Source: Armatimonadota bacterium (GTDB lineage: Bacteria > Armatimonadota > UBA5829 > DTLH01). Taken from it: a stretch of DNA of 64,000 nucleotides. The stretch spans positions 6,045 through 70,044 of the forward strand of contig JAKPFN010000089.1 of assembly GCA_029551395.1 (NCBI GenBank), written 5' to 3'. Shown in pieces: positions 3,720-60,640 of the stretch; positions within the stretch are counted from its first letter, which is position 1; the number at the start of each line of letters is the position of its first letter. The position numbers and the translations under genes are program-made. The notes under the pieces are model-generated. The model was not told where the DNA came from and ran no database searches. It saw nothing but the letters and a program-made list of their open reading frames with translations.

Positions 3720-3854
3720 GCCAAGTCCAGTTGATGGGAAGGTATGAGTTGGGTTTACTCATCACTCATCACTCGTTACTTCCCCACTTTACACTCGCTT
3801 TGTTCAATTCTGTGTTACAATAGATAGGCAAAATAGCAATTAAGATACAGGCGG

Positions 3855-7717: not shown

Positions 7718-7753
7718 AAATCCTCCATTATGCAGCCATCAGCCGTGTCATAA

Positions 7754-8992
7754 TCAAGAGCTTAAGGCCACTTTCCCCTTCTTAACAACAGTATCAACCG
7801 GGTTTGTCCCAAAATGATAAGGGATTTCCCGATAATCAGGCACTTTAAGTATCAATATATCTGCTTGTTTTCCCGGCTCAAGCGTTCCTACCAGTTTATC
7901 TCTGCGAATAGCTTTTGCGGCATTTAAGGTGGCAGCAATCAGTGCTTCTTCCGGCGTCATCTTGAGCTTCAGGCAGGCCAGGCCGATTATAACCGGCATT
8001 CCCTCGATGGTACACGTTCCAGGATTGTGATCTGTAGCCAAAGCAACTGGCAGACCGTGTTCTATCATCTTCCTGGCAGGCGCATATTTTGAATCGAGGA
8101 AAAAGCTCGTTCCAGGAAGGAGAACGGGCACGACTCCGGTTTGCTTCATCGCTGCGATTCCCGAATCTGACACATACACCAGATGATCTGCCGATACCGC
8201 TCCCACTTCGGCTGCAAGTTCAGCGCCTCCGAGCGGAGTAATCTCGTCTGCATGGACTTTGGGAAGCATACCCATTTGCTTTGCTTTAAGCAAAATGCGG
8301 CGAGATTCCTCTATTGAGAACACTCCGGTCTCGGTGAAGACATCGCAGAACTCTGCAAGTGAAGTCTTGGCTGCTGCTGGGATCATTTTGTCCACTACCA
8401 GGTCCACATAGTCCTGATGGCGTTCCCGGTAATCTGGAGGCACTTCATGAGCGCCCATGAACGTAGGCACAAGCTCGACTGGTTGTGAATCTGCGGCCAA
8501 CCGGATAGCCTGGAGCATTTTCATCTCGCTCGATGTAGACAGTCCGTAGCCTGTTTTGACTTCCGCCGTAGTGGTACCCCAGCCAAGCATCCGGGCAAGC
8601 CGTTCCCTGGCAAATCCAGCAAGATCTTCGACTGATGCTTTCCGGGTAGCTTTGACAGTGGAATTAATGCCGCCGCCTCGTTTGGCGATCTCCATATATG
8701 GCATACCTTGCAGCCTGAGAGCGAATTCCTCTGCTCTGGAGCCTGCATAAACCAGGTGGGTGTGAGGGTCAACATACCCAGGGCAGACTACCTTGCCTGC
8801 AGCATCTATTACAGTCAGTCCGGTGGTTTTCTTCACGAGCGGCAGAACATCATCGGTCTTGCCAAGAGCAGCGATCTTCTCACCTTTTACAGCCACAGCA
8901 CCGTCTTTGATGACCTTCAGCTTCCATCCCTTACCCGGTGTAACGAGCTGGGCTGCATTCAGAATGAGCAGATCAGGTGTAAACATATCCAC
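7754..8992 (-). CDS. hutI: Imidazolonepropionase
   Basis: Amidohydrolase fold with HutI motifs ('VDPHTHLVYAGSRAEEF...MPYMEIAKRGGGINSTVKATR', 'HADEI', 'ATDHNPG'). 412 aa. Confidence 0.85.
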   Translation of the reverse strand: MDMFTPDLLILNAAQLVTPGKGWKLKVIKDGAVAVKGEKIAALGKTDDVLPLVKKTTGLTVIDAAGKVVCPGYVDPHTHLVYAGSRAEEFALRLQGMPYMEIAKRGGGINSTVKATRKASVEDLAGFARERLARMLGWGTTTAEVKTGYGLSTSSEMKMLQAIRLAADSQPVELVPTFMGAHEVPPDYRERHQDYVDLVVDKMIPAAAKTSLAEFCDVFTETGVFSIEESRRILLKAKQMGMLPKVHADEITPLGGAELAAEVGAVSADHLVYVSDSGIAAMKQTGVVPVLLPGTSFFLDSKYAPARKMIEHGLPVALATDHNPGTCTIEGMPVIIGLACLKLKMTPEEALIAATLNAAKAIRRDKLVGTLEPGKQADILILKVPDYREIPYHFGTNPVDTVVKKGKVALSS

Positions 8993-10509: not shown

Positions 10510-11259
10510 CTACCATCGGTAATCGAACTGTACTGGCGAGTCTTTGGGCAGTGGGTAAGTATTTAACAGTTTTTCCTGCACAAATCTCGAGTGACCGTCG
10601 CAGAACAGCACATTAACGCCGCCCCTGTGCCGCTCACGAACCTGCTCTAATAAGAATTTATAGTTTCCGCCATAGAGGTCAGTCCAGGTACAGTCCATAA
10701 TGTATGCAACCCTAGAAGGCGTCCGGATCTCTGATTCTGTCGGTAATTTATCTGCCCACCAGTTCGGATTAGTAATATCCATTCCGGCCAAGGCAATGTT
10801 TATACCGTAATGGCACGGTATATAAGGGAAGCCATTTTTGCCGTTAGTATCATACCATACCCATCCACAGTCTCTGTCTGTTATTCTCTCCTCATTAGTT
10901 TGAATAGTACGTCGATCCTTGGGTACTTCTTCATATAAAATTCTAGGTGCAGATGGGCATCTATAAATGGCAAGGTTTTTCCCATACTTTTGAAGCAAAT
11001 ACGGCCAGGAATGCCATGTTCCATAAGGCCAACCTGCTGCCGGAAGGTAGCGGTCGTTCCAATCAGCATTGTAAGCTTTGAAAGCTAGACCCATCTGTCT
11101 TTGGTTAGATAAGCACTTAACGTCTCGTCCTTTTGATCGTGCCGCAGAAAATACCGGAAAGAGAATCGCTGCTAAAATTGCAATTATTGCGATTACGACA
11201 AGCAGCTCGATAAGTGTAAATCCGCGTTTGTTCATTTCTTCCCCTGTCCTTTTATTCAT
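10510..11259 (-). CDS. Prepilin-type N-terminal cleavage/methylation domain protein (DUF1559, H-X9-DG family)
   Basis: N-terminal '[30 protein letters not shown]' is the class III signal / pseudopilin helix. C-terminal '[11 protein letters not shown]' is the H-X9-DG-like motif. 249 aa. Confidence 0.8.
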
Positions 11260-13415: not shown

Positions 13416-14240
13416 ATGCTAGCTATCAACCGAAGGAAGAGCGGATTTACACTAATCGAGCTCCTGGTCGTCATTGCGATCATAGCTATCCTAGCAGCAA
13501 TCCTGTTCCCGGTTTTCGCAAGAGCTAGAGAGGCAGCAAGAAAATCTTCCTGCCAGAGCAATATGAAAGAGCTGGGTACGGCTGTAGCCCTGTATTTTGG
13601 TGACTATGATGCCATGCTCCCCAGTTCCATTCTTTATGGTGGTTCGGCAACTTGGAACACCAGCAACTTCATGAACTTTGCAATGGAAAGAGGCACATTG
13701 CCTCCAGATCCAAATGTTGGTTATGGTGTTAATGGAGTAGCGCAGTCTTGGCCGATGCTTCTTTACCCGCACATGAAGAACAAAGACATCGTGTGGTGCC
13801 CATCTGACCCTAACAAGAGTGAGGATCCAAGATCTAGAGTATCTTACTGGTATAAAGCTGCAATCGATGCTGCATGGTACGGCGGACCAGCTGGTAATGG
13901 CGCATTCTGCCGTAAGGAAGGCGATTTTGATTACCCTGCAGACCAGGTTATCTTCTATGAGGCCCGTGGTTGGCACTGGGGCGACACCAGCAAGGGATTC
14001 AAGAATGGTGTTACCTTGAATATGTGCTACATAGATGGACACGTGGCAGCCAAGAGAATCGCTGCCAGTGGTTATATGGGTATTTCCAATATTAACCAGC
14101 ATCTCGCATTGCCTGGCAGTTCAGCCGGTCAAGGTGAGCCTGCATGGTTCAACTACAACTATGAAGTTGCAAACACTTCTCAGCCTTACGTGGTTGGGCA
14201 GTTCTGGGATCCGCATATCTACGGAGACAACCTCCCGTAA
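13416..14240 (+). CDS. Prepilin-type N-terminal cleavage/methylation domain protein (DUF1559, H-X9-DG family)
   Basis: '[30 protein letters not shown]' N-terminus. 'GWHWGD...[13 protein letters not shown]' C-terminal motif. Strong RBS 'AAGGAGG' 7 nt upstream of the ATG. 274 aa. Confidence 0.85.
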
Positions 14241-21674: not shown

Positions 21675-22119
21675 ACGTTTTAATTAATGGAAGTGACGAG
21701 TTGCGAGTGATGAGTGATGAGGAGGGAAGTATCCCTGCAACAATTGCTGAATTTAATGGTTTTGGTAAAAACGAAATGGGCAGGAATTGAGCGTGATCTG
21801 AGCTTGGGATGGTGGCTTGTGAGCGTGGATTTCATTTCGTTTTGCATGTTTTTTATTGCACACCTTTCTTTTTGGCTCTTATTGTCTTCTGGGAGTCTGT
21901 TCCGGCCTGTTTTTATAGCCGTTTTCTGGAACGAACTCCCCAATTTGAGCACAAAAATGGCTGTTTGAGTTTGTTCCGACGTTTTTTTATTTATCGATTT
22001 TAGCCTGCGTTTCTGGATGTTTCAGAATTTACTGTTCATAATTATAATACAACAACTCGGCCAAAAAGTACAGAAAAAGTGGGGATATTTCTGGGATATT
22101 TATGGGAACGGATGTTTGC

Positions 22120-22250
22120 AAGAGGGTATGAGGTATGAGTGGGCTGTTACGTAGAGATTCTGCGTAATGCTGTTAGCTTGAGATATGGTAGTTGTTCGGG
22201 TTAGATTAATGCAGATTGAGGAATGCGGAATGAATATGAGGGATTGGGGA
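22120..22250 (-). repeat. Copy (reverse orientation) of the dispersed 'CTCATACCTCATACCC / ATTCCGCATTCC' intergenic repeat family
   Basis: The reverse complement of 'GGGTATGAGGTATGAGTGGGCTGTTACG' matches 'ACAGCCACTCATACCTCATACCC' at ~60571, and 'GAATGCGGAATG' matches the ATTCCGCATTC arm. Confidence 0.55.
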
Positions 22251-22300
22251 TAAGTATCCCTGAGATACCCGCCCCGGATGAATATCCGGGGCGATCAGAT
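22247..22300. repeat. Isolated copy of the palindromic 'GGATATCC..GAGATRC..CGCCCCGGATGAATATCCGGGGCGATC' repeat
   Basis: Same ~48-nt unit as the tandem array at 22926..23400. Contains an 8-bp GC-rich hairpin 'CCCCGGAT-GAAT-ATCCGGGG'. Confidence 0.7.
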
Positions 22301-22413
22301 GAAGGGATTCAACGATCTTGAAGGGAATAAATATCCGATGGTACCAATTAATGAAGCAGTAATTGATCAGACAAACTATCGGTTCTGGTCAGGATTCTTC
22401 GATCTGGTAGACA

Positions 22414-22917
22414 TTGAGAGTTGGATTCTGGGGAACATTTTCCGAAACGACGAGGCGCTATATGTTAACTCATAAGGACATTTTGCAGGCTGAGCAAATC
22501 CGCAATAGTCAAGTAAAGCGTATATATGAATCATCCGAGTTATGGTACAGTAACAAACAAAACCAGGAGGCATTGGATGAGTGGAGAAAAGCCTGCAACG
22601 ATTATCATAATACGACATTAGCGATCGATTACCTGTGGTCCGATGAGACTCGAATGAAGATCAAAAGCGGTGACAGAGAAACTATCGATGATGTTTTGCT
22701 GTTTCTTGAAGTCGATCCCTGGTTCTTTCGGTCGGGATATCTGAAAGAATGGCTGATCGATAACCTGATGCATGCACCGCTTACCGAAGAGGATAAAGTC
22801 AGGATACGACAGATTATCATCGCCGTTGCAGGTGGCCGGAACAGAAGGGAGTTCAGGCGGTTTTGTAAGCTGGCAACAAGAGTGACATCCTCCGAATTCG
22901 AAGCCACCATTGCGTAG
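22414..22917 (+). CDS. Hypothetical protein (the true start is probably the internal Met 'MLTHKD' near 22462), preceded by a small overlapping ORF (22299..22475)
   Basis: Only an ORF. No recognisable motifs. Flanked on both sides by copies of the palindromic repeat. Confidence 0.3.
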   Translation: MRVGFWGTFSETTRRYMLTHKDILQAEQIRNSQVKRIYESSELWYSNKQNQEALDEWRKACNDYHNTTLAIDYLWSDETRMKIKSGDRETIDDVLLFLEVDPWFFRSGYLKEWLIDNLMHAPLTEEDKVRIRQIIIAVAGGRNRREFRRFCKLATRVTSSEFEATIA

Positions 22918-22925
22918 TTGGCGGA

Positions 22926-23400
22926 GAAGCAAGACCCAGGCGGAAAGTTTTCATATCTGCTTCGATACCTGAAGGAGCATCCAACTCATTAAAGAGATTA
23001 GGATGGATATCCCTGAGATGTGCGCCCCGGATGAATATCCGGGCCGATCGGAGACAATTTTGTTGAATTACATTGCTTTCCACACGGGGACGGGTTGGAG
23101 GTTGGAGATTGGAGATGGATATCTCCGAGATGCCCGCCCCGGATGGATATCCGGGCCGATCGGGAAGCAAGACCCAGGCGGAAAGTTTTCATATCTGCTT
23201 CGATACCTGAAGGAGCATCCAACTCATTAAAGAGATTAGGATGGATATCCCTGAGATGTGCGCCCCGGATGGATATCCGGGCCGATCGGATTACATCGCT
23301 TTCCGCACGGAGAGGGGTTGGAGGTTGGGGATAGATATCCCCGAGATGCCCGCCCCGGATGGATATCCGGGCCGATCGGAAACCATTAGACACTGAAGCG
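22926..23400. repeat. Tandem array: a ~240-bp unit duplicated twice, with four copies of a ~48-nt palindromic repeat
   Basis: 'GAAGCAAGACCCAGGCGGAAAGTTTTCATATCTGCTTCGATACCTGAAGGAGCATCCAACTCATTAAAGAGATTAGGATGGATATCCCTGAGATGTGCGCCCCGGATG' occurs at 22926 and again at 23166. The core repeat '...GGATATCCNNGAGATGYSCGCCCCGGATGGATATCCGGGCCGATCGG' is present at ~23003, 23113, 23243 and 23340. Confidence 0.85.
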
Positions 23401-28605: not shown

Positions 28606-28966
28606 AAAAGGCCATTAAGTGCGGAACCTTTCAAGTGCGGAATCTTTCAAGTGCGGAATGCGGAATACGGAGTGCGGAATGAAGGGAGAGTTACGAGTGA
28701 TGAGGGATGAGCGGCTGTTAAGTAGCGGCTGGTTCGTAGATTTATCAGCTTGAGCTGTAGTGGTTGTTTGGGATCAAGAGATCCCTCGGTTGCTATTTCG
28801 GAGATGGATTGCAAATCCATCCCCAGTTAGACCCATCCTCATCTGGAGTTACTTGTCCGGGGGGAAATGTAAATTCCCCCGAGCTTGTTTCTCGACTCGT
28901 CACTTATCACTCGCGACTCATCACTTTCCCCTAATTCCGCACTCCGCACTCCACATTCCGCACTTG
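28606..28966. repeat. Composite intergenic element with ~90-bp imperfect terminal inverted repeats and a palindrome-rich centre
   Basis: Left arm: 4x 'AAGTGCGGAAT'-like units plus 'GTTACGAGTGATGAGGGATGAGC'. Right arm is the reverse complement: 'GCTCGTCACTTATCACTCGCGACTCATCAC...ATTCCGCACTCCGCACTCCACATTCCGCAC'. The centre carries 'GATGGATTGCAAATCCATC' and 'GGGGGAAATGTAAATTCCCCC' hairpins. Abuts the stop codon of the 28967..30472 gene. Confidence 0.8.
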
Positions 28967-40395: not shown

Positions 40396-40644
40396 ATGTA
40401 CCGGGTAAAGGAGGCATTGGTGATGACCTTTCAGGATATGACAATCACAGCTAAGGTCAAAGCGGCGTTAGCGCAGGCCGAAGATGTGAGCGCTATGGAT
40501 ATAGATGTAAATGTTAAGAATGGTGTTGTTACGCTCAAGGGCAATGTCAGCCGTGATGCCCATGACCGGGCAATTCAGGTAGCCAGGGGTGTAGACGGTG
40601 TAGTATCCGTCGAGGACAATCTCAACATAACATCATCAGCTTAA
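40396..40644 (+). CDS. BON domain-containing protein
   Basis: 'ITAKVKAALAQAEDVSAMDIDVNVKNGVVTLKGNVSRDAHDRAIQVARGVDGVVSVEDNL' is a classical BON domain. About 75 aa from Met 'MTFQDM'. Confidence 0.8.
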   Translation: MYRVKEALVMTFQDMTITAKVKAALAQAEDVSAMDIDVNVKNGVVTLKGNVSRDAHDRAIQVARGVDGVVSVEDNLNITSSA

Positions 40645-40653
40645 CGTGATAGA

Positions 40654-40700
40654 CAGGCCGCCCGATTGCAGCACAATCTGGCGGCCTTAATTGTTTTCTC
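40654..40700 (+). terminator. Rho-independent terminator after the BON gene
   Basis: 'AGGCCGCC'...'GGCGGCCT' stem followed by 'TAATTGTTTTCTC'. Confidence 0.6.
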
Positions 40701-40749
40701 TAACTCTTAGATTGCCTGGGATGTGTATCCCAGGTGCAGGTTTGGCGGT

Positions 40750-40945
40750 TATTCATCCGCCTATCTCTCGGGAGGGATTTGCCGTCTCTCGGGAGGAATT
40801 TGCCGTCTCTCGGGAGGAATTTGCAATTCCTCCCGGACATATTGCTGAGGGATCTGTGATCCCGGATGATTAACAAAAATACCAAGGAACGGGATTGCAA
40901 ATCCCTCTTTTGCTCTTCCGGGCTAAATTGCAAATTTAGCCCGAG
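40750..40945. repeat. Left arm of a ~200-bp imperfect inverted repeat bounding the 41-47.8 kb operon
   Basis: 'CCTCCCGGACATATTGCTGAGGGATCTGTGATCCCGGATGATTAAC(A)AAAATACCAAGGAACGGGATTGCAAATCCCT...CCGGGCTAAATTGCAAATTTAGCCCGAG' is the reverse complement of 47849..~48000. Contains 3 tandem 'TCTCGGGAGG(G/A)ATTTGC' units and the palindromes 'GGGATTGCAAATCCC' and 'CCGGGCTAAATTGCAAATTTAGCCCGG'. Confidence 0.85.
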
Positions 40946-41018
40946 TGTGAGTCGGCGCCACCATTATCGATCTTAGTCAGCTAAATTTTTCGGTTTTTGT
41001 CCATGCGGGTAGAATCGA

Positions 41019-41047
41019 GTTGACATCTGCTGCCGATAATAATATAT
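41019..41047 (+). promoter_or_regulatory. Candidate sigma70-type promoter for the NuoE/NuoF-GltD operon (followed by a ~315 nt leader)
   Basis: 'TTGACA'-17 nt-'TATATT' ('ttgacatctgctgccgataataatatatt'). Confidence 0.4.
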
Positions 41048-41232
41048 TGAAAGTACTAAGGAGCCGTCTTGTGAGGCAGGTTGACCTGTTCAACCTTCTC
41101 ATAAGATGACAAAACTGACCAAGAAGGAATAGGCAAAGGCAGCCTATAGCCGAGTGGCTGGTTGTTCTTGCAGTGTTGCACGGGACATAAAACCAATATC
41201 TTGGACCAATACCGCCTGCAGTAATCTCAGCA

Positions 41233-42261
41233 ATGGGGCTGAGCCGGATGGCAGACTCAGGTCTTAGACCTCAAACAACCTGCAAAGACACCGCAAAGCA
41301 TTTGTTTTGCACCAACCAGCCATATTCGACATTCCTGGCAGCGCAGCAAGGAGTAGAAGAAATGGTCTTAAATGTAGAGCCTTCGTGCAAGACATGCACC
41401 TGCCACGAGGAAGTGGATTTATCGCATGTCGAGAAGATTCTGGCCAAATACAACAATGACCGAGCCGAATTACTCTCGATTCTTGAGGAGGTTCAGGCCG
41501 ATTATGGCTATCTCCCGCAGAATGCACTTCGAATGGTGGCTGAAAGAACAGGCTCCTCGATGGTCGACGTTTTCGGCGTCGCCACTTTCTACCGCGCATT
41601 CAACCTCAAACCCCGAGGCAAACACTGCATCTCTGTGTGCATGGGAACAGCCTGTCATGTTAAAGGTGCGCCGAATGTAGTAAAAGAGTTCGAGCGTCAG
41701 CTTGGAATCTCTGTTGGCGAAACTACCCCAGACAACGAATTTACGCTTGAAACAGTCAATTGCCTTGGAGCAAGCGCACTGGGGCCAATCGTAATGGTTG
41801 ACGGGCATTATTTCTCCCATGTCACTCCCGCAAAAGTAAAGTGGCTCCTGTCAATGGTTCGTGCAGGACTTGATAAGGTCGATGTAAAGACTGATAGCCG
41901 GATAATCCACCTGGATGTGCTGTGTCCTCACTGCAATCAAAGTCTGATGGATTCTGTGCATCCAATAGACGGCTGCCCATCCATCCATACGACCATAACC
42001 TTTAACGGGGTTAGCGGTCATGCAAGATTGTCATCTCTTTATGGAAGTTACTCCATTCAATCAGAGCCTGATGCACCTGTGGGAACTACAGTTGACTTTT
42101 TCTGCCCATCGTGCAATAAAAAACTTACGACGACATCCAGATGTCCCGAATGTGGTGAGTTGATGGCATTGATGAGAGTAAGTGGGGGCGGTGTAGTACA
42201 AATCTGCACGCAGCGTGGATGTAAAGGGCATATACTAGACCTGAGTGAAATCGATATCTAA
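41233..42261 (+). CDS. NuoE/HoxE/HydC-like thioredoxin-fold [2Fe-2S] subunit with a C-terminal zinc-ribbon-like extension
   Basis: 'LSILEEVQADYGYLPQNALRMVAERTGSSMVDVFGVATFYRAFNLKPRGKHCISVCMGTACHVKGA...VNCLGASALGPIVMVDG' is the NuoE-family 2Fe-2S module. The C-terminal ~130 aa carry CxxC pairs ('CPHCNQ', 'CPSCNK', 'CPECGE'). The likely true start is ATG ~41363, with RBS 'AAGGAG' and Met 'MVLNVEPS'. Confidence 0.75.
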   Translation: MGLSRMADSGLRPQTTCKDTAKHLFCTNQPYSTFLAAQQGVEEMVLNVEPSCKTCTCHEEVDLSHVEKILAKYNNDRAELLSILEEVQADYGYLPQNALRMVAERTGSSMVDVFGVATFYRAFNLKPRGKHCISVCMGTACHVKGAPNVVKEFERQLGISVGETTPDNEFTLETVNCLGASALGPIVMVDGHYFSHVTPAKVKWLLSMVRAGLDKVDVKTDSRIIHLDVLCPHCNQSLMDSVHPIDGCPSIHTTITFNGVSGHARLSSLYGSYSIQSEPDAPVGTTVDFFCPSCNKKLTTTSRCPECGELMALMRVSGGGVVQICTQRGCKGHILDLSEIDI

Positions 42262-42314
42262 CAGCCACGGTGAAATAGTCAAGCTTTATTGGGCATAAGA
42301 AGGAATGGATAAGA

Positions 42315-45300
42315 TTGATGGAAAGACTGACTTCCGTTGAGGAGTTTCGGACACTGCAGAGTCGCGTCATTGCAGCTTTAGACCCTACAGTTCCTACCAT
42401 AGTTATCCCGGCCGGCACTTGCGGACAGGCTAGCGGTGCGAGTGATCTGATCAGAGTCGCAAAACGTTATCTCTTGGAAAAACGTTTAACTGATAAGGTT
42501 CGCTTGCGCATCACTGGATGTCATGGGTTCTGCGAAATGGAACCTTCCGTGCTTATCGAACCGCAAAAAACATTCTACCCTCGGGTAAGCATGAGAGATG
42601 TCTCCCGGATCATAGATGCCGCTGTAGAGGGAAAGGTGATCGAAGAACTCCTTTTTGTAGATCCAACGACCGGGGAACGGATTCGCAAGCAAAGTGATAT
42701 CCCATTTTTCAAAAAACAGTTCCGTTTGTTGATGGAAAGAAATGAGCGGGTAGACCCAAGACGGATTTTGGACTATATAGAGTCTGGTGGATATACAGCG
42801 CTGGCAGAGGTACTTGCAGAACGTGATCCTGAATGGGTTGTGTCCGAGGTCAAAGCGTCTGGACTGAGAGGCCGCGGCGGAGCTGGATTTCCTACGGGGA
42901 TTAAATGGGAAATGCTGGCAAAGCAGCCGAGCGATAAAGGCAAATTCATCGTGTGTAATGCTGATGAAGGCGACCCAGGAGCCTACATGGACCGCAGTAT
43001 CCTCGAAGGCAACCCACACAGCATCATTGAAGGGATGATCATTGGAGCTTTTGCGACTGGTGCGACTGATGGGATCATATATGTGTGCTGCGAGTTTCCT
43101 CTGGCTATTAAACATATTGGTATGGCATTGGAACAGGCGTATGAACTCGGGCTGCTGGGTGAAAACATTTTAGGCGCCGGTTTCTCCTTTAATATGACTA
43201 TGGTTAAAGGCGCTGGGGCATTCGTCTGCGGCGAAGAAACCGCCATGATCCACTCTATCGAAGGTTATACCGGCGAGCCAAGGCAAAGACCTCCATTTCC
43301 CATCCAAAAAGGAATAAACGGCAAGCCTACTGCCATTAATAATGTCGAGACATGGGCCAATATCCCGATTATCATCAGGGATGGCGCAAAAGCTTATGCC
43401 AGTATCGGCACTCCAAACAATTCCGGTACAAAAATCTTTAGCTTGGTCGGCAAGGTCAAACACACCGGGCTTGTTGAGATGCCTATGGGTACCACAATCG
43501 GAGAGATTGTATATAACGTAGGCGGTGGAGCTGTTGGCAACAGCGAAATCAAGGCTGTGCAGACTGGCGGGCCTTCAGGTGGATGTATTCCAGCAAGCAG
43601 CTTCGATCTTCCTGTAGATTATGATACGCTGGCTAAGTTCGGTTCGATTATGGGGTCTGGCGGCATGATCGTCATGGATGAAGATACGTGTATGGTCGAT
43701 GTTGCCAAATACTTCATGAACTTCCTGAAGAATGAGTCCTGCGGCAAGTGCTTTACCTGCCGTAAAGGCACTCAGCGGATGTATGAACTGCTGGAAGATA
43801 TTACTCTGGGAGCAGGTACTCCTGAAAGTATAGCTCTTTTGGAAGAACTTGCGTATGTAGTCAAAGACACGACGATGTGCGGTCTAGGGCAGTCGGCATC
43901 GAATTCCGTTTTGAGTTCGCTTAGGCATTTCCGCAATGAATATGAACAGCATGTAGTTGAAGGAAAATGCCCCTCTTATGTATGCAAGGATTTGGTAGGG
44001 GTGCCTTGTCAGACTGCCTGTCCGGTAGGGACTGAAATCTGGCGGTATATTGCGCAGATAGAGCACAAAAATTATGTAGATGCGTATAAAACAATACGTG
44101 AGTCTAACCCATTTCCATCGGTATGTGCTCGAGTGTGCAATCATCCGTGTGAAGACAGATGCAAATCCGGCACAAGCGGCGGGCAGCCAATCAATATCAG
44201 GGCTTTGACGAGGTTCGTTACCGATAATGTCGACCCAGGCGTTTATAAACCGGTAATTGAGCCACAGTTTGGAGATAAACATCCTCAGGTTGCTGTTGTT
44301 GGCGGAGGGCCAGCCGGACTGACAGCCGCGCATTATCTTTCTTTGAAAGGCTGCAAGGTTACTATCTTCGAGCAGGAATCTGAGCTTGGAGGAATGCTTC
44401 TTTCCGTAATACCGGAATACAAGCTGCCAGGAGAGGTTCTAAAATCGGAGATTGCCTCTTTGCTTAACGATAACATCACGCTCAAATACGGCACAGTGCT
44501 TGGGCGAGACATCACTGTTGATGGCTTGTTGAAAGACAACTTCGATGCTGTGTTCCTGAGTTTCGGTGCTCATAATAGTTCTGGGCTGCAATCGGACATT
44601 AAGGATATTCAAGGCGTTTATCCATTGCTGGATTATGTTAAGTCGGTAAATCTGAGAGGCGAAAACCTTGCTATTGGTAAGGTTGGCATCATTGGAGGAA
44701 GCGTTTCTGCTATTGATGCTGCCCGGACAGCCATCAGGTCGGCTAAAGCTGAGAGCGTAACGGTCTTTTATCAAGGGACGCGCGAAGATATGCTGGCAGC
44801 GAAAGATGAAATCGATGCTGCCATCGAAGAAGGTGTCAGTATTGAAACTCTGGTGTCTGTTGAAGAGATCCTCTCTCAAGACGGCAAGTTGGCAGGGGCC
44901 AGGATAGTTAAAAGCAGACTTGGAGACTTCGATTCGGATGGCCGAAGAAGACTTAAGCCGATTGCAGGGAGTGAACAAAAGGTAGATTTGGACACTCTCA
45001 TCATAACCGCATCGGAATCTCCAGATGTGGAATGTTTGCTGAGTAATAGTCATCTAAGCATCGATCTCAATGCTGACGGGACTATAAAAGTGGATGTTGG
45101 AACACTTGCTGCCAGTATTCCCGGTGTCTTTGCTGGAGGTGATATAACCGGCCAGGTTAGCGTCATCGATGCAATCGCAGCAGGAAAAAGAGCTGCTGAG
45201 TCTATTAGCTGTTACCTGCAAGGTAAAGTATATAAACCATCAACTGGTATCCAACTGCCGCAGGTTTTTATAGAACCAAACAGATCTGAAGAAGATGCAA

Positions 45301-45467
45301 GCGGACAAAGCGCCCGGGTCAAGCTTCCAAAGATCGATGTCAGTGAGCGACGTGGAAACTTCAAGGAAGTCGAGATTTCGCTTACACCGGAAAACGCTCT
45401 AAAAGAAGCCGGAAGATGCCTGAGGTGTGATCTGGACTTCTTCAAGTGCAAAGAGTGCCAGGAGTAA
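42315..45467 (+). CDS. Fusion protein: NuoF-like NADH-binding FMN/[4Fe-4S] flavoprotein module + GltD/NfnB-like [4Fe-4S]x2 FAD/NAD(P)H oxidoreductase module
   Basis: N-terminal half: 'GLRGRGGAGFPTGIKWE' (NuoF NADH/FMN site), 'ESCGKCFTCRKGTQRM' (NuoF 4Fe-4S), SLBB-like region. C-terminal half: 'CPSYVCKDLVGVPCQTACPVGTEIWRY...VCARVCNHPCEDRCK' (GltD/DPD-type N-terminal Fe-S domain), 'VAVVGGGPAGLTAAHYL' (FAD), 'VGIIGGSVSAIDAARTA' (NAD(P)H), 'GVFAGGDI'. 1050 aa. The start is more likely ATG 42318. Confidence 0.8.
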   Translation: MMERLTSVEEFRTLQSRVIAALDPTVPTIVIPAGTCGQASGASDLIRVAKRYLLEKRLTDKVRLRITGCHGFCEMEPSVLIEPQKTFYPRVSMRDVSRIIDAAVEGKVIEELLFVDPTTGERIRKQSDIPFFKKQFRLLMERNERVDPRRILDYIESGGYTALAEVLAERDPEWVVSEVKASGLRGRGGAGFPTGIKWEMLAKQPSDKGKFIVCNADEGDPGAYMDRSILEGNPHSIIEGMIIGAFATGATDGIIYVCCEFPLAIKHIGMALEQAYELGLLGENILGAGFSFNMTMVKGAGAFVCGEETAMIHSIEGYTGEPRQRPPFPIQKGINGKPTAINNVETWANIPIIIRDGAKAYASIGTPNNSGTKIFSLVGKVKHTGLVEMPMGTTIGEIVYNVGGGAVGNSEIKAVQTGGPSGGCIPASSFDLPVDYDTLAKFGSIMGSGGMIVMDEDTCMVDVAKYFMNFLKNESCGKCFTCRKGTQRMYELLEDITLGAGTPESIALLEELAYVVKDTTMCGLGQSASNSVLSSLRHFRNEYEQHVVEGKCPSYVCKDLVGVPCQTACPVGTEIWRYIAQIEHKNYVDAYKTIRESNPFPSVCARVCNHPCEDRCKSGTSGGQPINIRALTRFVTDNVDPGVYKPVIEPQFGDKHPQVAVVGGGPAGLTAAHYLSLKGCKVTIFEQESELGGMLLSVIPEYKLPGEVLKSEIASLLNDNITLKYGTVLGRDITVDGLLKDNFDAVFLSFGAHNSSGLQSDIKDIQGVYPLLDYVKSVNLRGENLAIGKVGIIGGSVSAIDAARTAIRSAKAESVTVFYQGTREDMLAAKDEIDAAIEEGVSIETLVSVEEILSQDGKLAGARIVKSRLGDFDSDGRRRLKPIAGSEQKVDLDTLIITASESPDVECLLSNSHLSIDLNADGTIKVDVGTLAASIPGVFAGGDITGQVSVIDAIAAGKRAAESISCYLQGKVYKPSTGIQLPQVFIEPNRSEEDASGQSARVKLPKIDVSERRGNFKEVEISLTPENALKEAGRCLRCDLDFFKCKECQE

Positions 45468-46153
45468 TGAGTATGGTCAACTTTGTTTTAAACGGTTTGC
45501 CTGTTAGTGTTGAGAAAGGATCGACAATACTGGAAGCCGCGCAGTTTTATGGTTTTCCTATTCCAACGTTATGTCACATGGAAGGACTTTCGCCGTACGG
45601 TGCGTGCCGTCTTTGCGTAGTAGAGATAGGCGAAGGACCAAGGGCCAAGCTTGTTACATCCTGTACTTATCCGGTTGAGGAAGGCCTGAAGGTGCGAACT
45701 GCCTCAGAGAGAGTGATTAAAGCACGGAGGATGGTCATAGAGCTTCTTTTGGCTTCGTGCCCGCAGTCTAAAACAATACAAGACCTTGCCTCCGCGCATG
45801 GAGTGAGACAGCAGCGCTTCAGGCAGGAATATGAAGACTGCATACTGTGCGGACGCTGCATACGGATGTGCAAAGAACAGATGATGGCAAAAGCTATAGG
45901 TTTCAGGGGCCGTGGCGAAGGAAGGTCCATCGGTACTCCCTTTGATATGAAGAGTGAACAGTGCAGGCAGTGTGGCGGCTGCATCTATGTATGCCCTGCC
46001 TGCCAGTTGAGATGCACTTACACCGAGCCGGAGAAAGCGGTGTGCGGTGGATGCGCGAATCTGACACCTCCTTGTGTCGAGAAAGATTCGTTTGATGATA
46101 TGATGTGTTATATGAACCCATGTGTAGCTTGTGAAATCAAGAAGGACCTGTAA
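45446..46153 (+). CDS. Ferredoxin subunit: 2Fe-2S (NuoG/HydA N-terminal type) + two [4Fe-4S] motifs
   Basis: 'VNFVLNGLPVSVEKGSTILEAAQFYGFPIPTLCH...GACRLCVVEI' (Fer2_4-like 2Fe-2S), 'CILCGRCIRMC' and 'CRQCGGCIYVCPAC' (4Fe-4S). The start is probably the internal Met 'MSMVNF' overlapping the upstream stop. Confidence 0.75.
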   Translation: MQRVPGVMSMVNFVLNGLPVSVEKGSTILEAAQFYGFPIPTLCHMEGLSPYGACRLCVVEIGEGPRAKLVTSCTYPVEEGLKVRTASERVIKARRMVIELLLASCPQSKTIQDLASAHGVRQQRFRQEYEDCILCGRCIRMCKEQMMAKAIGFRGRGEGRSIGTPFDMKSEQCRQCGGCIYVCPACQLRCTYTEPEKAVCGGCANLTPPCVEKDSFDDMMCYMNPCVACEIKKDL

Positions 46154-47756
46154 GGAGTCAAATGATATGGCGACAGCTTTCTCGAGGGTGAATGCTTCAG
46201 CAGCGACCCTTACCAAGAATCGAACTGAAGGATCAGTATCTTCCATCTCAGGTATGTGCGTGACCTGCGTAGATGGCTGCATCGGTATGTGCGAGATTGG
46301 AAAGTCCGCATACAGGGGCCATGAGGTTATTTATCCGCAGCCGTTTGGTGTTATTACGACTGCTGCTGAAAAGACCTACCCTGTTGACTACTCGCATTTT
46401 AACATAATGGGCACCGCAGTCGGGGCTGTTGGTATTGAGGCCGATAGTGACAAGGCTATATTCCCGAACGTTGACCTTTCGGTCCGATTCGGTCATGACG
46501 GCGGCATTAAGTTCAAACTGCCAATGATTATCCCTGGAATTGGCTCAACGAATATCGCCAAGAATAACTGGGAAGGATTAGCGATCGGTTCGGCGCTTGC
46601 AGGAACAGGTCTGACTATCGGTGAGAATGTTGTAGGTATGGATCCGCAGTCCGTAATCAAAAACGGACGTGTGGTTGATACCGTAGACCTGAAGCGCAGG
46701 GTCAAACTCTTCAAAGACTACCAGCGGGATGGCTGGGGAGAGATAGTTGTTCAGGCTAATGTAGAGGATACAAGGCTTGGAGGCCAGGAATACGCTATAC
46801 AGGAGCTCGGCGTTAGAGTTGTTGAGATGAAATGGGGCCAGGGCGCAAAGGACATCGGCGGCGAGGTCAAAATAAACGACCTGAAGAAGGCCCAACTGCT
46901 TTACGAGCGCGGTTATGTAGTCATACCGAATCCGACTGACCCGAATGTGATTAAAGCATTCGAGCAAGGCGCTTTCAAGGAGTTCGAGCGGCACTCGAGA
47001 GTCGGAATGATCTCTGAAGAGAGCTTTGCAAAGAGGGTGGAGGAACTGCGTAAGGCTGGTGCGAAGTATATCTTCCTGAAGACCGGTGCTTACAGACCTG
47101 CAGACCTTGCCAGAGCTATTGCATGGGCATCCAAATATAAGCTTGACCTGCTGACAGTTGATGGCGCAGGCGGTGGAACCGGTATGAGTCCGTGGAGGAT
47201 GATGAACGAGTGGGGAGTCCCGCCGGTTGAGCTTCATTCATTGCTTTATCAGTTTGCCAAGCGGCTTGCGGACAAGGGGAGGTATCTCCCGGCTTTTGCT
47301 GTTGCAGGTGGATTCACCTTCGAAGACCAGATATTCAAAGGTCTGGCAATGGGCGCTCCATTCGTGAAGCTGGTTGGAATGGCCCGAGGTCCTATTGCCT
47401 CTGCAATGGTAGGAAAGACCATCGGCAGAAGTATGGATGACGGTCAGCTTCCGGTGTATGTGGAGCGATTCGGCACGACCAGGGATGAGATTTTCGTCAC
47501 GGCAGCACATCTCAGGCAGGAACTTGGAGATGATGAGTTCGAAAAGCTGCCTACTGGTGCTCTTGGGCTTTACACCTATTATGAAAGGCTTGCCCAGGGA
47601 CTCCGCCAGTTGATGTGTGGAAGCCGGAAGTTCGCACTGGAGCACATCAGCCGAAACGATATTGCTGCTCTCACCCCGGAGGCATCAAAGGTCAGTGGTA
47701 TCCAGTACATAATGCACGTTGACGAGGACGAGGTAGACCAAATCCTCGACGCGTAG
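46131..47756 (+). CDS. Glutamate synthase large-subunit FMN-binding central domain ('GltB domain 2', PF01645-like) as a stand-alone subunit
   Basis: 541 aa. N-terminal Cys cluster 'CVTCVDGCIGMCE'. TIM-barrel FMN region 'KFKLPMIIPGIGSTN...GENVVGMDPQ', 'LLTVDGAGGGTGMSPWRMMNEWGVP', 'FAVAGGFTFEDQIFKGLAMGAPFVKLVGMARG'. No glutamine amidotransferase domain in the cluster. Confidence 0.7.
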   Translation: MKSRRTCKESNDMATAFSRVNASAATLTKNRTEGSVSSISGMCVTCVDGCIGMCEIGKSAYRGHEVIYPQPFGVITTAAEKTYPVDYSHFNIMGTAVGAVGIEADSDKAIFPNVDLSVRFGHDGGIKFKLPMIIPGIGSTNIAKNNWEGLAIGSALAGTGLTIGENVVGMDPQSVIKNGRVVDTVDLKRRVKLFKDYQRDGWGEIVVQANVEDTRLGGQEYAIQELGVRVVEMKWGQGAKDIGGEVKINDLKKAQLLYERGYVVIPNPTDPNVIKAFEQGAFKEFERHSRVGMISEESFAKRVEELRKAGAKYIFLKTGAYRPADLARAIAWASKYKLDLLTVDGAGGGTGMSPWRMMNEWGVPPVELHSLLYQFAKRLADKGRYLPAFAVAGGFTFEDQIFKGLAMGAPFVKLVGMARGPIASAMVGKTIGRSMDDGQLPVYVERFGTTRDEIFVTAAHLRQELGDDEFEKLPTGALGLYTYYERLAQGLRQLMCGSRKFALEHISRNDIAALTPEASKVSGIQYIMHVDEDEVDQILDA

Positions 47757-47783
47757 TGCGATTCGTAGGGGTAAATAAAGAAG

Positions 47784-47816
47784 GGAGGCAGTTCAAAAAG
47801 GATTGCCTCCCTTTTA
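47784..47816 (+). terminator. Rho-independent terminator of the four-gene operon
   Basis: 'GGGAGGCAG'-TTCAAAAAGGAT-'TGCCTCCC' followed by 'TTTTAATTA', ~30 nt after the stop. Confidence 0.7.
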
Positions 47817-47848
47817 ATTATCAATGTGCAGTAATTTGAAGAATAACC

Positions 47849-48060
47849 TCGGGCTAAATTTGCAAATTTAGCCCGGAATAGTGGATTAGGGATTTGCAAT
47901 CCCGTTCCTTGGTATTTTAGTTAATCATCCGGGATCACAGATCCCTCAGCAATATGTCCGGGAGGGATTGCAAATCCCTCCCGAGAGATGAATCCCTCCC
48001 GAGAGTGTCCCTCCCGAGATAAGGTTCGTCTGGGAGGCTAGGAATCCCCTCACGAGATAG
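47849..48060. repeat. Right arm of the ~200-bp inverted repeat (reverse complement of 40750..40945)
   Basis: 'CTCGGGCTAAATTTGCAAATTTAGCCCGG...GGGATTTGCAATCCCGTTCCTTGGTATTTTAGTTAATCATCCGGGATCACAGATCCCTCAGCAATATGTCCGGGAGG' plus degenerate 'CCCTCCCGAGAG' tandem units. Confidence 0.85.
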
Positions 48061-55228: not shown

Positions 55229-55229
55229 A

Positions 55230-55262
55230 AGTTACGAGTGGCGAGTGATGAGTAACGAGAAA
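55230..55262 (+). repeat. Copy of the 'GTTACGAGTG(G/A)CGAGTGATGAGTAACGAG' dispersed repeat
   Basis: 'AGTTACGAGTGGCGAGTGATGAGTAACGAG' matches copies at ~21691, 28690 and 60503, and in reverse at 3758 and 25875. Confidence 0.7.
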
Positions 55263-60464: not shown

Positions 60465-60502
60465 GTATAACAGCGCCCCGAAACCAGTGTCAAACGCAGG
60501 GA

Positions 60503-60640
60503 AGTTACGAGTGATGAGTGATGAGTAACGAGTAGGGGACTTGGCTCAAAATAACAAAGTAACGAACCGTTTCTACTTAACAGCCACTCATACCTCATAC
60601 CCAAGATTCCGCATTCCGCACTCCGAACTCCGCATTTAAA
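60503..60640 (+). repeat. Copy of the dispersed intergenic repeat element (GTTACGAGTGATGAGTGATGAGTAACGAG ... CCACTCATACCTCATACCC ... ATTCCGCATTCCGCACTCCGAACTCCGC)
   Basis: Direct sequence match to arms of the 28606..28966 element and to the reverse-oriented copy at 22120..22250. Confidence 0.75.

Follow-up and report, generated by a model that had tools for sequence, protein, structure and literature searches.

The 64,000-nucleotide (nt) stretch of contig JAKPFN010000089.1 analysed here, called the window, comes from an Armatimonadota bacterium and carries, between two inverted-repeat (IR) arms, an operon of four genes for iron-sulfur and flavin proteins. The genes encode a NuoE-like subunit, a fusion of a NuoF-like with a GltD-like protein, a small polyferredoxin and a protein that resembles the flavin mononucleotide (FMN) domain of glutamate synthase (GltS). 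The first three are named below after BfuC, BfuB and BfuA of the electron-bifurcating Bfu family. We propose that the operon encodes a widespread, strongly conserved and so far uncharacterised soluble Fe-S flavoprotein complex with a putative glutamate-linked mechanism, a reading to which we assign a probability of roughly 0.55. The locus itself is an ordinary chromosomal operon of an Armatimonadota bacterium. The features of the operon are as follows.

41020..41048, plus strand: sigma-70-type promoter-like element (TTGACA-17-TATATT, 11/12 matches, the best in the region).
41055..41361, plus strand: 5′ leader, about 180-300 nt depending on the start codon, with a block conserved with the related locus L059.
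41362..42261, plus strand: BfuC/NuoE-like [2Fe-2S] subunit (PF01257, E 1e-49; NCBIfam NuoE/HoxE matches).
42318..45467, plus strand: BfuB::GltD fusion, about 1050 amino acids (aa), with PF01512, SLBB (PF10531), PF10589, PF14691 and PF07992 in a single open reading frame (ORF).
45467..46153, plus strand: small BfuA-like polyferredoxin, about 227 aa (PF13510 and Fer4, a 4Fe-4S dicluster domain).
46167..47756, plus strand: FMN TIM-barrel protein, 529 aa, the catalytic candidate (PF01645, weak: E 3.4e-13, residues 293-414 only).
47780..47818, plus strand: intrinsic terminator, a 15-16 bp GC-rich hairpin at 47780-47814 followed by UUUU (z = -5.15).

The arms enclose four ORFs that all point the same way, at 41233-42261, 42315-45467, 45446-46153 and 46131-47756. 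The positions of ribosome-binding sites and the gene calls of other assemblies refine the starts to ATG 41362 (or 41233), ATG 42318, ATG 45467 or 45473, and ATG 46167. The ATG at 41362 has the ribosome-binding site AAGGAG 8 nt upstream and agrees with 299-aa gene calls in other assemblies; a start at ATG 41233 gives a 342-aa form of the NuoE-like protein. The BfuA-like start overlaps the preceding stop codon (TAATG). A reading of this stretch made from the sequence alone (hereafter the sequence-only reading) had given the operon a promoter-like element and a terminator of its own; both are confirmed, by the 11/12 promoter matches and the strong hairpin, and the domain order that it proposed is borne out by Pfam matches for all four genes and by PDB searches.

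The operon is not peculiar to this stretch of DNA; it belongs to a very widespread and highly conserved family. The FMN protein has more than 8000 database relatives, and the best 120 are all 81-87% identical to it and carry the labels Planctomycetota, Phycisphaerae, KSB1, Latescibacterota, Calditrichota, WOR-3, Bacteroidetes, Ignavibacteriae and Zixibacteria. At least 597 loci came up when a single genome of each species was scanned, and 80 of them were fetched with their flanks; these 80 are from Planctomycetota, Zixibacteria, Ignavibacteria/Bacteroidota, Acidobacteriota, Latescibacterota, Desulfobacterota and others, and the family is also present in KSB1, Marinimicrobia, syntrophic Desulfobacterota and an anammox genome. 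TBLASTN searches with each module show that the order NuoE core, NuoE C-terminal extension, BfuB N-terminal domain, NuoF, GltD, BfuA-like and GltB-like is kept in essentially all of the 80 loci with enough flank. It follows that the fusion is genuine and that the four genes form a unit.

The subunits differ in how strongly they are conserved. With the caveat that the loci were picked by similarity of the GltB-like gene, the median pairwise identity is 82% (minimum 73%) for the GltB-like protein, 81% for the BfuA-like protein, 74% for NuoF, 64% for NuoE, 62% for GltD and 47% for the BfuB N-terminal domain. The partner genes in these operons have drifted apart to 50-60%, so recent transfer is not enough to account for the ~80% identity of the FMN and BfuA-like subunits. 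These two subunits are under unusually strong constraint and probably form the functional core of the complex.

The neighbourhood of the related operons offers one link to glutamate. Genes for ELFV (Glu/Leu/Phe/Val)-family dehydrogenases lie within about 6 kb of the operon in 12 of the 80 loci, where chance alone would give roughly 0.2. Eight of the 12 are of the GdhA type, in several phyla and at differing positions, and three (L029, L035 and L036) are directly adjacent and co-directional.

The NuoE-like subunit has three of the expected [2Fe-2S] ligands, C136, C141 and C177. At the fourth ligand position the window has Ser181 (AGC, 41773-41775), as do the two independent assemblies L091 and L092, while 62/62 homologues have Cys. 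This cluster, C1, is part of the proposed bifurcation site in Bfu enzymes, and roles of B1, FMN and C1 in ferredoxin reduction have been described (PMC12018979, PMC9304861). The subunit ends in a Cys-rich extension of about 130 aa, zinc-ribbon or rubredoxin-like, which is particular to this operon family and conserved in most loci, being missing in L039 and L059. In the window (42103-42231) the extension has CPxC...CPxCG knuckles, which make up two CxxC...CxxC pairs, and its 8 Cys and 1 His are about 96% conserved.

The second gene joins two modules in one chain. Its segments, with residues counted from the TTG at 42315, are as follows.

Residues 1-140, plus strand: N-terminal thioredoxin-like domain.
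Residues 141-550 (42735-43964), plus strand: NuoF FMN/NADH domain with a [4Fe-4S] cluster.
H546/C552/C557, plus strand: hinge motif.
Residues 551-650, plus strand: GltD Fe-S domain.
Residues 651-980, plus strand: FAD/NAD(P)H domain, followed by a Cys-containing tail.
44688..44798, plus strand: NADPH-binding signature of the GltD half, degenerate (IIGGSVSAIDAAR and FYQGTREDMLA; family consensus, GGGNSAxDAAR and YRRTRQEMPA).

A frameshift artefact was considered as an explanation of the 1050-aa ORF and is ruled out: the window has the NuoF::GltD fusion as a single ORF, and about 55 loci from other phyla also read through it in one frame. The fusion claimed from the sequence is genuine. The nearest PDB chains to the NuoF half are 7t2r_B (E 1.5e-195), 9n5u_B of NfnB, 7q4v_B and 8a6t_B of HydB, and 9mqx_B. 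The best of these matches (7t2r_B, 9n5u_B and 7q4v_B) support the earlier assignment of the NuoEF module to the bifurcating (Bfu/HydBC) type. The NuoF half contains GRGGAGFPTG, and the ligands of its B1 [4Fe-4S] cluster, C476/C479/C482/C522, are 98-100% conserved. The thioredoxin-like domain aligns with HydB/NfnB from residue ~27-30 and matches NF041613; at its B5 site, which in Bfu enzymes holds [2Fe-2S] or Zn, conservation is confined to C69 and C73, C36 reaching 52%. The GltD half matches 9bov_A and 9n5u_A (NfnA) with E 1e-81 to 1e-91 and has PF14691 and PF07992, an intact FAD GxGxxG motif and six to eight Fe-S cysteines. The NADPH motif reads GGSVSA / YQG..EDMLA in the window and GGGNSA / YRR..EMPA in the family. 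Of the earlier view of GltD as an NAD(P)H module, the fold is therefore upheld by both Pfam domains, and the NADPH signature is not, being degenerate in this copy.

The B3/B4 domain of canonical BfuB, a ferredoxin domain marked by two CX2CX2CX3CP motifs, is the route of low-potential electrons to ferredoxin (PMC12018979, PMC9304861). This domain is absent from the window BfuB, whose chain runs after H546/C552/C557 into the GltD Fer4_20 domain. Fourteen of the loci lack the GltD half. Eight of these were translated, and all but one end in two CX2CX2CX3CP motifs; the GltD-less NuoF proteins are ~620 aa long, and their ferredoxin motifs immediately follow the H..CPxxVC motif, which in the window stands before GltD. 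Their layout is that of canonical BfuB as defined by PMC9304861 and PMC12018979. Because the canonical domain follows the same hinge motif in the GltD-less relatives, GltD takes the place of B3/B4 in the fused form. In most genomes, including this one, the predicted BfuB has a GltD module in place of the 2x[4Fe-4S] ferredoxin domain. The remaining locus, L059, represents a third form, in which BfuB is truncated just after the hinge motif and has neither B3/B4 nor GltD.

The closest PDB chain to the BfuA-like polyferredoxin is 9mqx_A, a 247-aa 'chain G-like' protein (E 3e-40). It has 21 Cys conserved at 99-100%, which would serve a [2Fe-2S] cluster and 2x[4Fe-4S] and include 8-9 extra invariant Cys at the C-terminus. 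Among characterised systems, the Bfu family (HydABC, NiFe-HydABCSL and WOR-Bfu; PMC9304861) is the nearest, in particular its 'Type 2' members, which have a small BfuA and a separate catalytic subunit. The likeness lies in the small BfuA with [2Fe-2S] and 2x[4Fe-4S], in the PDB matches (7t2r_B, 9n5u_B, 7q4v_B, 9mqx_B and 9mqx_A) and in the full canonical BfuB of the GltD-less relatives. The window operon differs from the family in its third-substrate module, a GltS-like FMN/Fe-S protein absent from the survey (PMC9304861), in having GltD for B3/B4, in the extra Cys-rich C-terminal domain of NuoE and in the 8-9 extra conserved Cys of BfuA.

A second family with these domains is StnABC/NfnABC, the Bfu-type NADH-dependent ferredoxin:NADP+ oxidoreductase, which likewise has NuoE, NuoF, a GltD/NfnL-like FAD module and the NuoG N-terminal clusters (PMC7483475, PMC10482914, PMC12018979). 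Since all Stn/NfnABC domain types (NuoE, NuoF, GltD and the NuoG N-terminus) are present in the window, and glutamate dehydrogenase (GDH), an NADPH source, often adjoins the operon, the complex could be imagined as a transhydrogenase between NADH, NADPH and ferredoxin, with the GltS-like protein an accessory electron sink or regulatory subunit. We consider this highly improbable. About 14 loci lack GltD yet keep the GltS-like gene, and the GltS-like and BfuA-like proteins are the most conserved (median 82% and 81%, against 62% for GltD), which points to them as the core. The architecture also differs: in Stn/Nfn enzymes GltD is fused to BfuA and feeds the mid-potential path, whereas in the window it stands at the BfuB C-terminus and BfuA is separate, a fourth, GltS-like subunit is present, and the NADPH signature of this copy is degenerate.

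The glutamate-linked reading centres on the fourth subunit, which has three motifs of note.

46257-46292, plus strand: N-terminal CxxCxxxCxxxC motif (residues 31-42), near-invariant.
46821-46910, plus strand: GltS-like E.K..QGAK...G...R motif.
47160-47192, plus strand: DGAGGGTGMSP, like the GltS FMN-phosphate loop.

Glu_synthase (PF01645) is the sole Pfam family matched, both in the window protein and in distant members. A search of 1.84 billion representatives with the FMN subunit gave 1067 matches at E<=1e-3, and the nearest full-length relatives were only 31-54% identical, so that canonical GltB proteins were not reached by sequence search. No PDB chain was found by phmmer for the FMN subunit, and a 199-aa core fragment matched designed TIM barrels only. 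The family profile (alignment A1) reaches GltS at E about 0.08, and in Foldseek GltS structures have the top query TM-scores (0.48-0.50). The segment 219-VEMKWGQGAKDIGGEVKINDLKKAQLLYER-248 of the window protein aligns without gaps with residues 963-992 of the ferredoxin-dependent GltS (Fd-GltS) of Synechocystis, taken from the PDB. In this register E220/K222/Q225/K228/G232/R248 correspond to GltS E964/K966/Q969/K972/G976/R992, and they are invariant or near-invariant in A1. GltS K972 and R992 are residues which we take to hold 2-oxoglutarate. By these comparisons the predicted fourth subunit is remotely related to the FMN (synthase) domain of glutamate synthase. The sequence-only reading had called it a PF01645-type GltB FMN/3Fe-4S protein. 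Its relation to the FMN domain stands, as a remote one with a weak, partial match; the 3Fe-4S part does not, as no such motif is present and a Cys4 motif lies at the N-terminus instead. Presumably this N-terminal Cys4 motif supplies the entry cluster in place of 3Fe-4S.

The pairing of a GltD-type module with an FMN TIM-barrel protein is shared with bacterial NADPH-GltS (GltB alpha/GltD beta) and with the split archaeal GltS, as are, at the sequence level, PF01645 (weakly matched here), the K972/R992 register and the DGxGGTGxSP FMN-phosphate motif. The operon family differs from GltS in having no amidotransferase or GXGXG domain, fused or adjacent. No amidotransferase, GXGXG domain, glutamine synthetase or GDH was found among the scanned large ORFs of the window, and clustering of the flanking ORFs gave no recurrent amidotransferase, GXGXG domain or glutamine synthetase around the 80 loci. 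The early remark that a glutamine amidotransferase is missing holds for both the window's large ORFs and the 80 flanks. An ordinary split archaeal-type GltS was also tried as an identity for the locus and rejected, as neither the scanned large ORFs of the window nor the recurrent genes of the 80-locus flanks include a glutamine amidotransferase or a GXGXG protein, and the PF01645 match is weak and partial.

Distant members of the family place the same domain in other company. P0250 (800 aa) is a fusion of a 2x[4Fe-4S] ferredoxin, an F420-reactive flavoprotein of the FrhB/FdhB type and the GltB-like domain, including the Cys4 motif; the distant paralogues P0122 and P0123 are stand-alone genes whose surroundings offer no informative partner. 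The catalytic domain thus appears to be a module that is joined to different electron-input systems. A parallel is FGltS, the putative F420-dependent glutamate synthase of methanogens (PMC3448663, PMC3087415), in which a GltS-type FMN subunit likewise depends on an alternative electron-input flavoprotein, and the Fer4 and FrhB/FdhB fusion of P0250 carries the domain of the window family. FGltS differs in that its input module is the F420-reactive FrhB rather than NuoEF/GltD and in that it is predicted to use glutamine with a separate amidotransferase; its role is itself putative (PMC3448663, PMC3087415).

Given so remote a relation, the likeness to GltS might reflect shared FMN TIM-barrel ancestry only, the FMN subunit acting on another substrate, such as a 2-hydroxy or 2-oxo acid (lactate or 2-hydroxyglutarate), another imine or a non-carboxylate acceptor. 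We judge this somewhat unlikely, as Glu_synthase is the sole Pfam family detected, the K972/R992-type register is conserved, GDH genes are enriched beside the operon, and GltD, the natural partner of GltS, has been recruited into it.

For the glutamate-linked complex we suggest the following mechanism. NADH would be oxidised at the NuoF FMN, and electrons would pass from B1 through the BfuA clusters and the Cys4 cluster to the FMN of the GltS-like subunit. This FMN would reduce a substrate derived from a 2-oxo acid, the likeliest candidate being 2-iminoglutarate that arises from 2-oxoglutarate and free ammonia; the reaction may also run backwards, as an oxidation of glutamate. The glutamate/2-oxoglutarate couple is about 180 mV more positive than NAD, so NADH could act as a bifurcating donor. 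The exergonic step may then be coupled, in the manner of Bfu enzymes, to a low-potential branch, in which the second electron would go uphill via C1 to ferredoxin in the canonical BfuB form, or via the GltD clusters and FAD to NADP+ in the fused form. Bifurcation with NADH as donor would fit the cofactor layout and the natural exchange of GltD for B3/B4.

In its fullest form this would make the enzyme an energy-conserving, ammonia-dependent glutamate synthase of the Bfu bifurcating type, in which the reductive amination of 2-oxoglutarate by NADH, being strongly exergonic, drives a second electron pair uphill to ferredoxin or NADP+. Taken as a whole, this energy-conserving version is distinctly unlikely. 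If true, the enzyme would found a new class among those that form glutamate and would be the first of the Bfu family with a high-potential organic acceptor as third substrate, present in a large share of the uncultured anaerobic phyla, and, run in reverse, it would make glutamate oxidation feasible in fermenters.

The same complex might also work without bifurcation, NuoEF (together with GltD in copies where that works) being a plain entry for NADH or NADPH and all electrons going to the GltS-like subunit. In that case the enzyme would use NADH and ammonia as an analogue of glutamate synthase or glutamate dehydrogenase, without ferredoxin coupling. NADH alone is thermodynamically enough for reductive amination. 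Architecturally similar complexes with BfuABC-like or NuoEF subunits that do not bifurcate exist (PMC9304861); the BfuB of L059, having neither B3/B4 nor GltD, suggests that a low-potential exit is dispensable in at least one lineage, and the window copy has a Ser ligand at C1. Set against these points, the closest solved relatives of the NuoF half are all from bifurcating enzymes, the Bfu-specific N-terminal thioredoxin-like domain and hinge motif are kept, and most translated GltD-less relatives (all but L059) retain B3/B4, which would be useless in a simple NADH dehydrogenase module. On balance, we regard a non-bifurcating enzyme as unlikely.

Several points weigh against the glutamate-linked reading and the bifurcation attached to it. 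The putative substrate pair glutamate/2-oxoglutarate is drawn from a short motif, remote homology and gene neighbourhood. GltS Q978 is not conserved, the window protein having V234/E233 at that position, and residues ~314-470, the stretch aligned with GltS 1008-1115, contain no Cys and hence no 3Fe-4S motif. No amidotransferase or GXGXG domain accompanies the operon, either in the window or in the 80-locus flanks. The two-component system found upstream of many relatives (below) yields no nitrogen-control signal, scoring alike to AtoSC, NtrBC and ZraSR and below every NCBIfam equivalog cut-off. A couple far more positive than NAD is a misfit with the usual Bfu scheme, where the potential of the third substrate falls between those of NAD and ferredoxin. 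The Ser at the C1 ligand and the degenerate NADPH signature mean that this copy may work differently from the family norm. Finally, bifurcation is not readable from sequence, and similar NuoEF complexes without it exist (PMC9304861).

The divergence of this copy is uneven. Counted at columns that are at least 90% conserved, the window deviates at 22/107 in the GltD FAD/NADPH domain (median of the others, 3), at 13/229 in NuoF (median 4) and at 8/59 in the NuoE core (median 2). The corresponding counts are 9/349 in the GltB-like protein (median 8) and 1/147 in the BfuA-like protein (median 2). In this lineage the electron-input side of the predicted enzyme has evidently come under relaxed constraint or changed its specificity, with the catalytic side kept as it was.

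In 48 of the 80 related loci the operon is preceded by genes for a histidine kinase, whose N-terminus is often GAF-like, and for a sigma-54 response regulator of the NtrC type, and TGGCAY-N5-TTGCW elements lie 230-600 nt upstream in 19/56 loci. Nitrogen control through this conserved two-component system was considered and found uninformative, the kinase and the regulator being generic. The window operon has no sigma-54 system; a sigma-70 promoter and a leader of ~300 nt are present instead. The leader matches L059:6621-6856 (nhmmer E 1.8e-8), the only family locus that it matches, and its predicted fold has z = -2.25. The -35 element GTTGACAT is kept in the L059 leader, and the conserved block includes the hairpins TAGGC-N7-GCCTA and TGCA-N4-TGCA. 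The leader could be a cis-regulatory RNA that takes the place of the sigma-54 control of most relatives. A riboswitch or other known RNA, in the leader or in the IR arms, was looked for and not found: Rfam gave no match at the gathering threshold in the whole window and none at E<=1 in 40600-41450.

We class the system as a Bfu-type complex in which both the catalytic partner and the exchange of GltD for B3/B4 are undescribed. The Bfu survey of Schut et al. 2022 leaves 17-18 of 57 clades without function, and in its text and supplement 'glutamate' occurs 0 times and GltB is never mentioned (PMC9304861). No description of a NuoEF/Bfu complex with a GltB-like subunit was found in the full-text literature, subscription-only papers lying outside the reach of the search. 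This agrees with the sequence-only reading, which had recognised no characterised enzyme in the subunit composition.

NuoEF-based (Bfu) enzymes are a major route by which anaerobes balance NADH, NADPH and ferredoxin. The GltS-like partner is among the most conserved proteins of these genomes, at about 80% identity between phyla while its partner subunits are at 50-60%, and such conservation without a known function marks a gap in the picture of central anaerobic redox or nitrogen metabolism. If glutamate/2-oxoglutarate is linked to ferredoxin or NADPH, the metabolic models of many uncultured lineages would need revision, because the genes are now annotated 'NADH dehydrogenase' or 'glutamate synthase family protein'. 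Canonical, GltD-fused and truncated BfuB form a natural series, a ready-made experiment on the low-potential branch of Bfu enzymes.

The operon lies between two repeat blocks.

40763..40945, no strand assigned: left repeat block, with 3 tandem 21-nt units at 40764-40826 followed by hairpins; core arm 40806-40929.
47848..48020, no strand assigned: right repeat block, the reverse complement of the left; core arm 47865-47988, tandem units 47973-48020.

The two imperfect IRs that had been said to bracket the operon are confirmed: the repeat finder gives core arms 40806-40929 / 47865-47988 of 124 nt that are 93% complementary, BLASTN stretches the pair to 161 nt at 90.7%, and it is the longest of the 4 IR pairs of at least 30 nt in the 64-kb window. 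Reading of the arms and a domain scan also bear out their description as palindromes and short tandem units without a transposase gene. In the left arm the tandem 21-nt unit TCTCTCGGGAGGRATTTGCCG occurs three times, and 3′ of these units the block, read directly, has four hairpins with loops TTGCAA/TTTGCAAA. The unit CTCGGGAGGRATT has 5 copies, confined to both arms, against 0.13 expected. The left block, which is predicted to fold into stacked hairpins (z = -5.08), is downstream of a BON-domain gene (40396-40644) and upstream of the operon promoter. Terminator-like hairpins are present in both arms and face the adjoining genes: one with a T-run at 40891-40905 inside the left block, and one on the minus strand (47875-47850) in the right block, which resembles a terminator for a convergent 93-aa ORF.

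A comparable flanking IR was found at none of 52 testable homologous loci from other genomes. A comparison with orthologous loci, which had been proposed for both genes and repeats, thus upholds the co-conservation of the four genes (80 loci) and not that of the IRs (0/52). As the IRs are absent from 52 homologous loci while the four genes are co-conserved, they do not define the enzyme system. In near-identical strains (98-99.6% identity) most short-read contigs break exactly at the arms, at 40803-40814 and 47958-47965 (L081-L096, many samples). Contigs that end at the arms reflect the behaviour of assemblers at a true repeat, so the IR breaks up the assemblies of this organism. Contigs running across an arm (L084, L091, L092 and L097) are all in the orientation of the window.

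One strain variant, L087 (L087:1-945; sample DRR438537), is 98% identical downstream and keeps the right arm and the downstream region; directly before that arm it has a MacB/FtsX-type ABC permease gene in the place expected for the operon and its GltB-like gene. Its homology to the window begins exactly at 47848, the inner edge of the right arm; this arrangement marks the arm as a rearrangement breakpoint. The central parts of the arms are identical to each other in the window and diverged in the orthologous arm of L087, where the divergence includes a compensatory hairpin change, GGGATCACAGATCCC to GGAATCACAGGTTCC. Identity within the window and a compensatory change in L087 point to gene conversion between the arms and to selection for the hairpins. 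A related hairpin at 28794-28826, GATGGATTGCAAATCCATC as against the arm unit GAGGGATTGCAAATCCCTC, also shows compensatory change and suggests a genome-wide hairpin family. Around this hairpin lies a 64-nt inverted pair (80%) at 28648-28966.

The sequence-only reading had treated the IR-bounded 7-kb segment as a cassette, and the segment might be a mobile or invertible element that carried the operon into this genome. The arms are long, near-identical terminal inverted repeats (124 nt, 93%) placed exactly outside promoter and terminator, their central parts have been homogenised within this genome, the sigma-54 two-component system found ahead of the operon in most relatives is missing here, and the homology of L087 stops exactly at the inner edge of the right arm, beside the permease gene. 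Yet a Pfam scan of the ORFs found no transposase, recombinase, integrase or invertase within or beside the segment, whose GC content and skew are like those of the flanks. All arm-crossing contigs share one orientation, a search with the exact flanking proteins turned up no empty site, in which the YtxH gene would come straight after BON, and no target-site duplication was seen by eye at the outer arm edges. A metagenome scan with the 26-nt non-palindromic IR centre found this locus only, within the limit that assemblies break at the repeat, and kindred hairpin units at other places in the window point to a REP-like family. With 52 homologous loci lacking a comparable IR and the four genes tightly co-conserved, the notion of a mobile unit is unsupported, and we hold it very unlikely. 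A dispersed miniature inverted-repeat transposable element (MITE) was also considered for the IR and rejected, as the scan with the 26-nt centre, limited by the breaking of assemblies at the repeat, gave only this locus.

Instead, the IRs look like local intergenic elements of this Armatimonadota lineage, REP-like hairpin arrays that stand outside the enzyme system, and the arms probably act as terminators or insulators and as recombination substrates. Like the REP/BIME repeats (repetitive extragenic palindromes and bacterial interspersed mosaic elements), they are arrays of short imperfect palindromes and tandem units that are intergenic, lie by gene ends and are terminator-like; compensatory changes preserve the hairpins, and related units occur elsewhere in the window. 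They differ from these in having 2 full copies in 64 kb, arranged as a long inverted pair around one operon.

Two other intergenic repeats were observed in the window. An array at 22235-23385 has ~70-nt repeats in five copies, including a 127-nt pair that is 99% identical; it is built of palindromes such as CCCGGATGRATATCCGGG and GGGATAAGTATCCC and overlaps two ORFs without a Pfam match. A second, dispersed family, AAGTTACGAGTGATGAGTGATGAGTAACGAG, with heptamer-like GAGTGAT units, has five copies in the 64 kb, in both orientations.

3755-3784, 21691-21721, 28688-28718, 55229-55259 and 60502-60532: copies of the AAGTTACGAGTGATGAGTGATGAGTAACGAG family.

The other large ORFs of the window are ordinary chromosomal genes, for AddAB, a short-chain dehydrogenase/reductase (SDR), a GH35/42 beta-galactosidase, a BON protein and a YtxH/HhH protein, with further ORFs for an alkaline phosphatase, a rhamnosidase, EPSP and DAHP synthases, MreB and RF-1. 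On the minus strand at 6185-8992, about 32 kb from the operon, a formiminotransferase-cyclodeaminase gene adjoins an amidohydrolase gene; the pair looks like the end of histidine degradation to glutamate. Divergent paralogous DUF1559/prepilin-type genes, at 10510-11259 (minus strand) and 13416-14240 (plus strand), flank a phytase-like gene, and a 76-nt IR at 11150-11225 / 13441-13516 arises from their coding sequence rather than from a repeat element.

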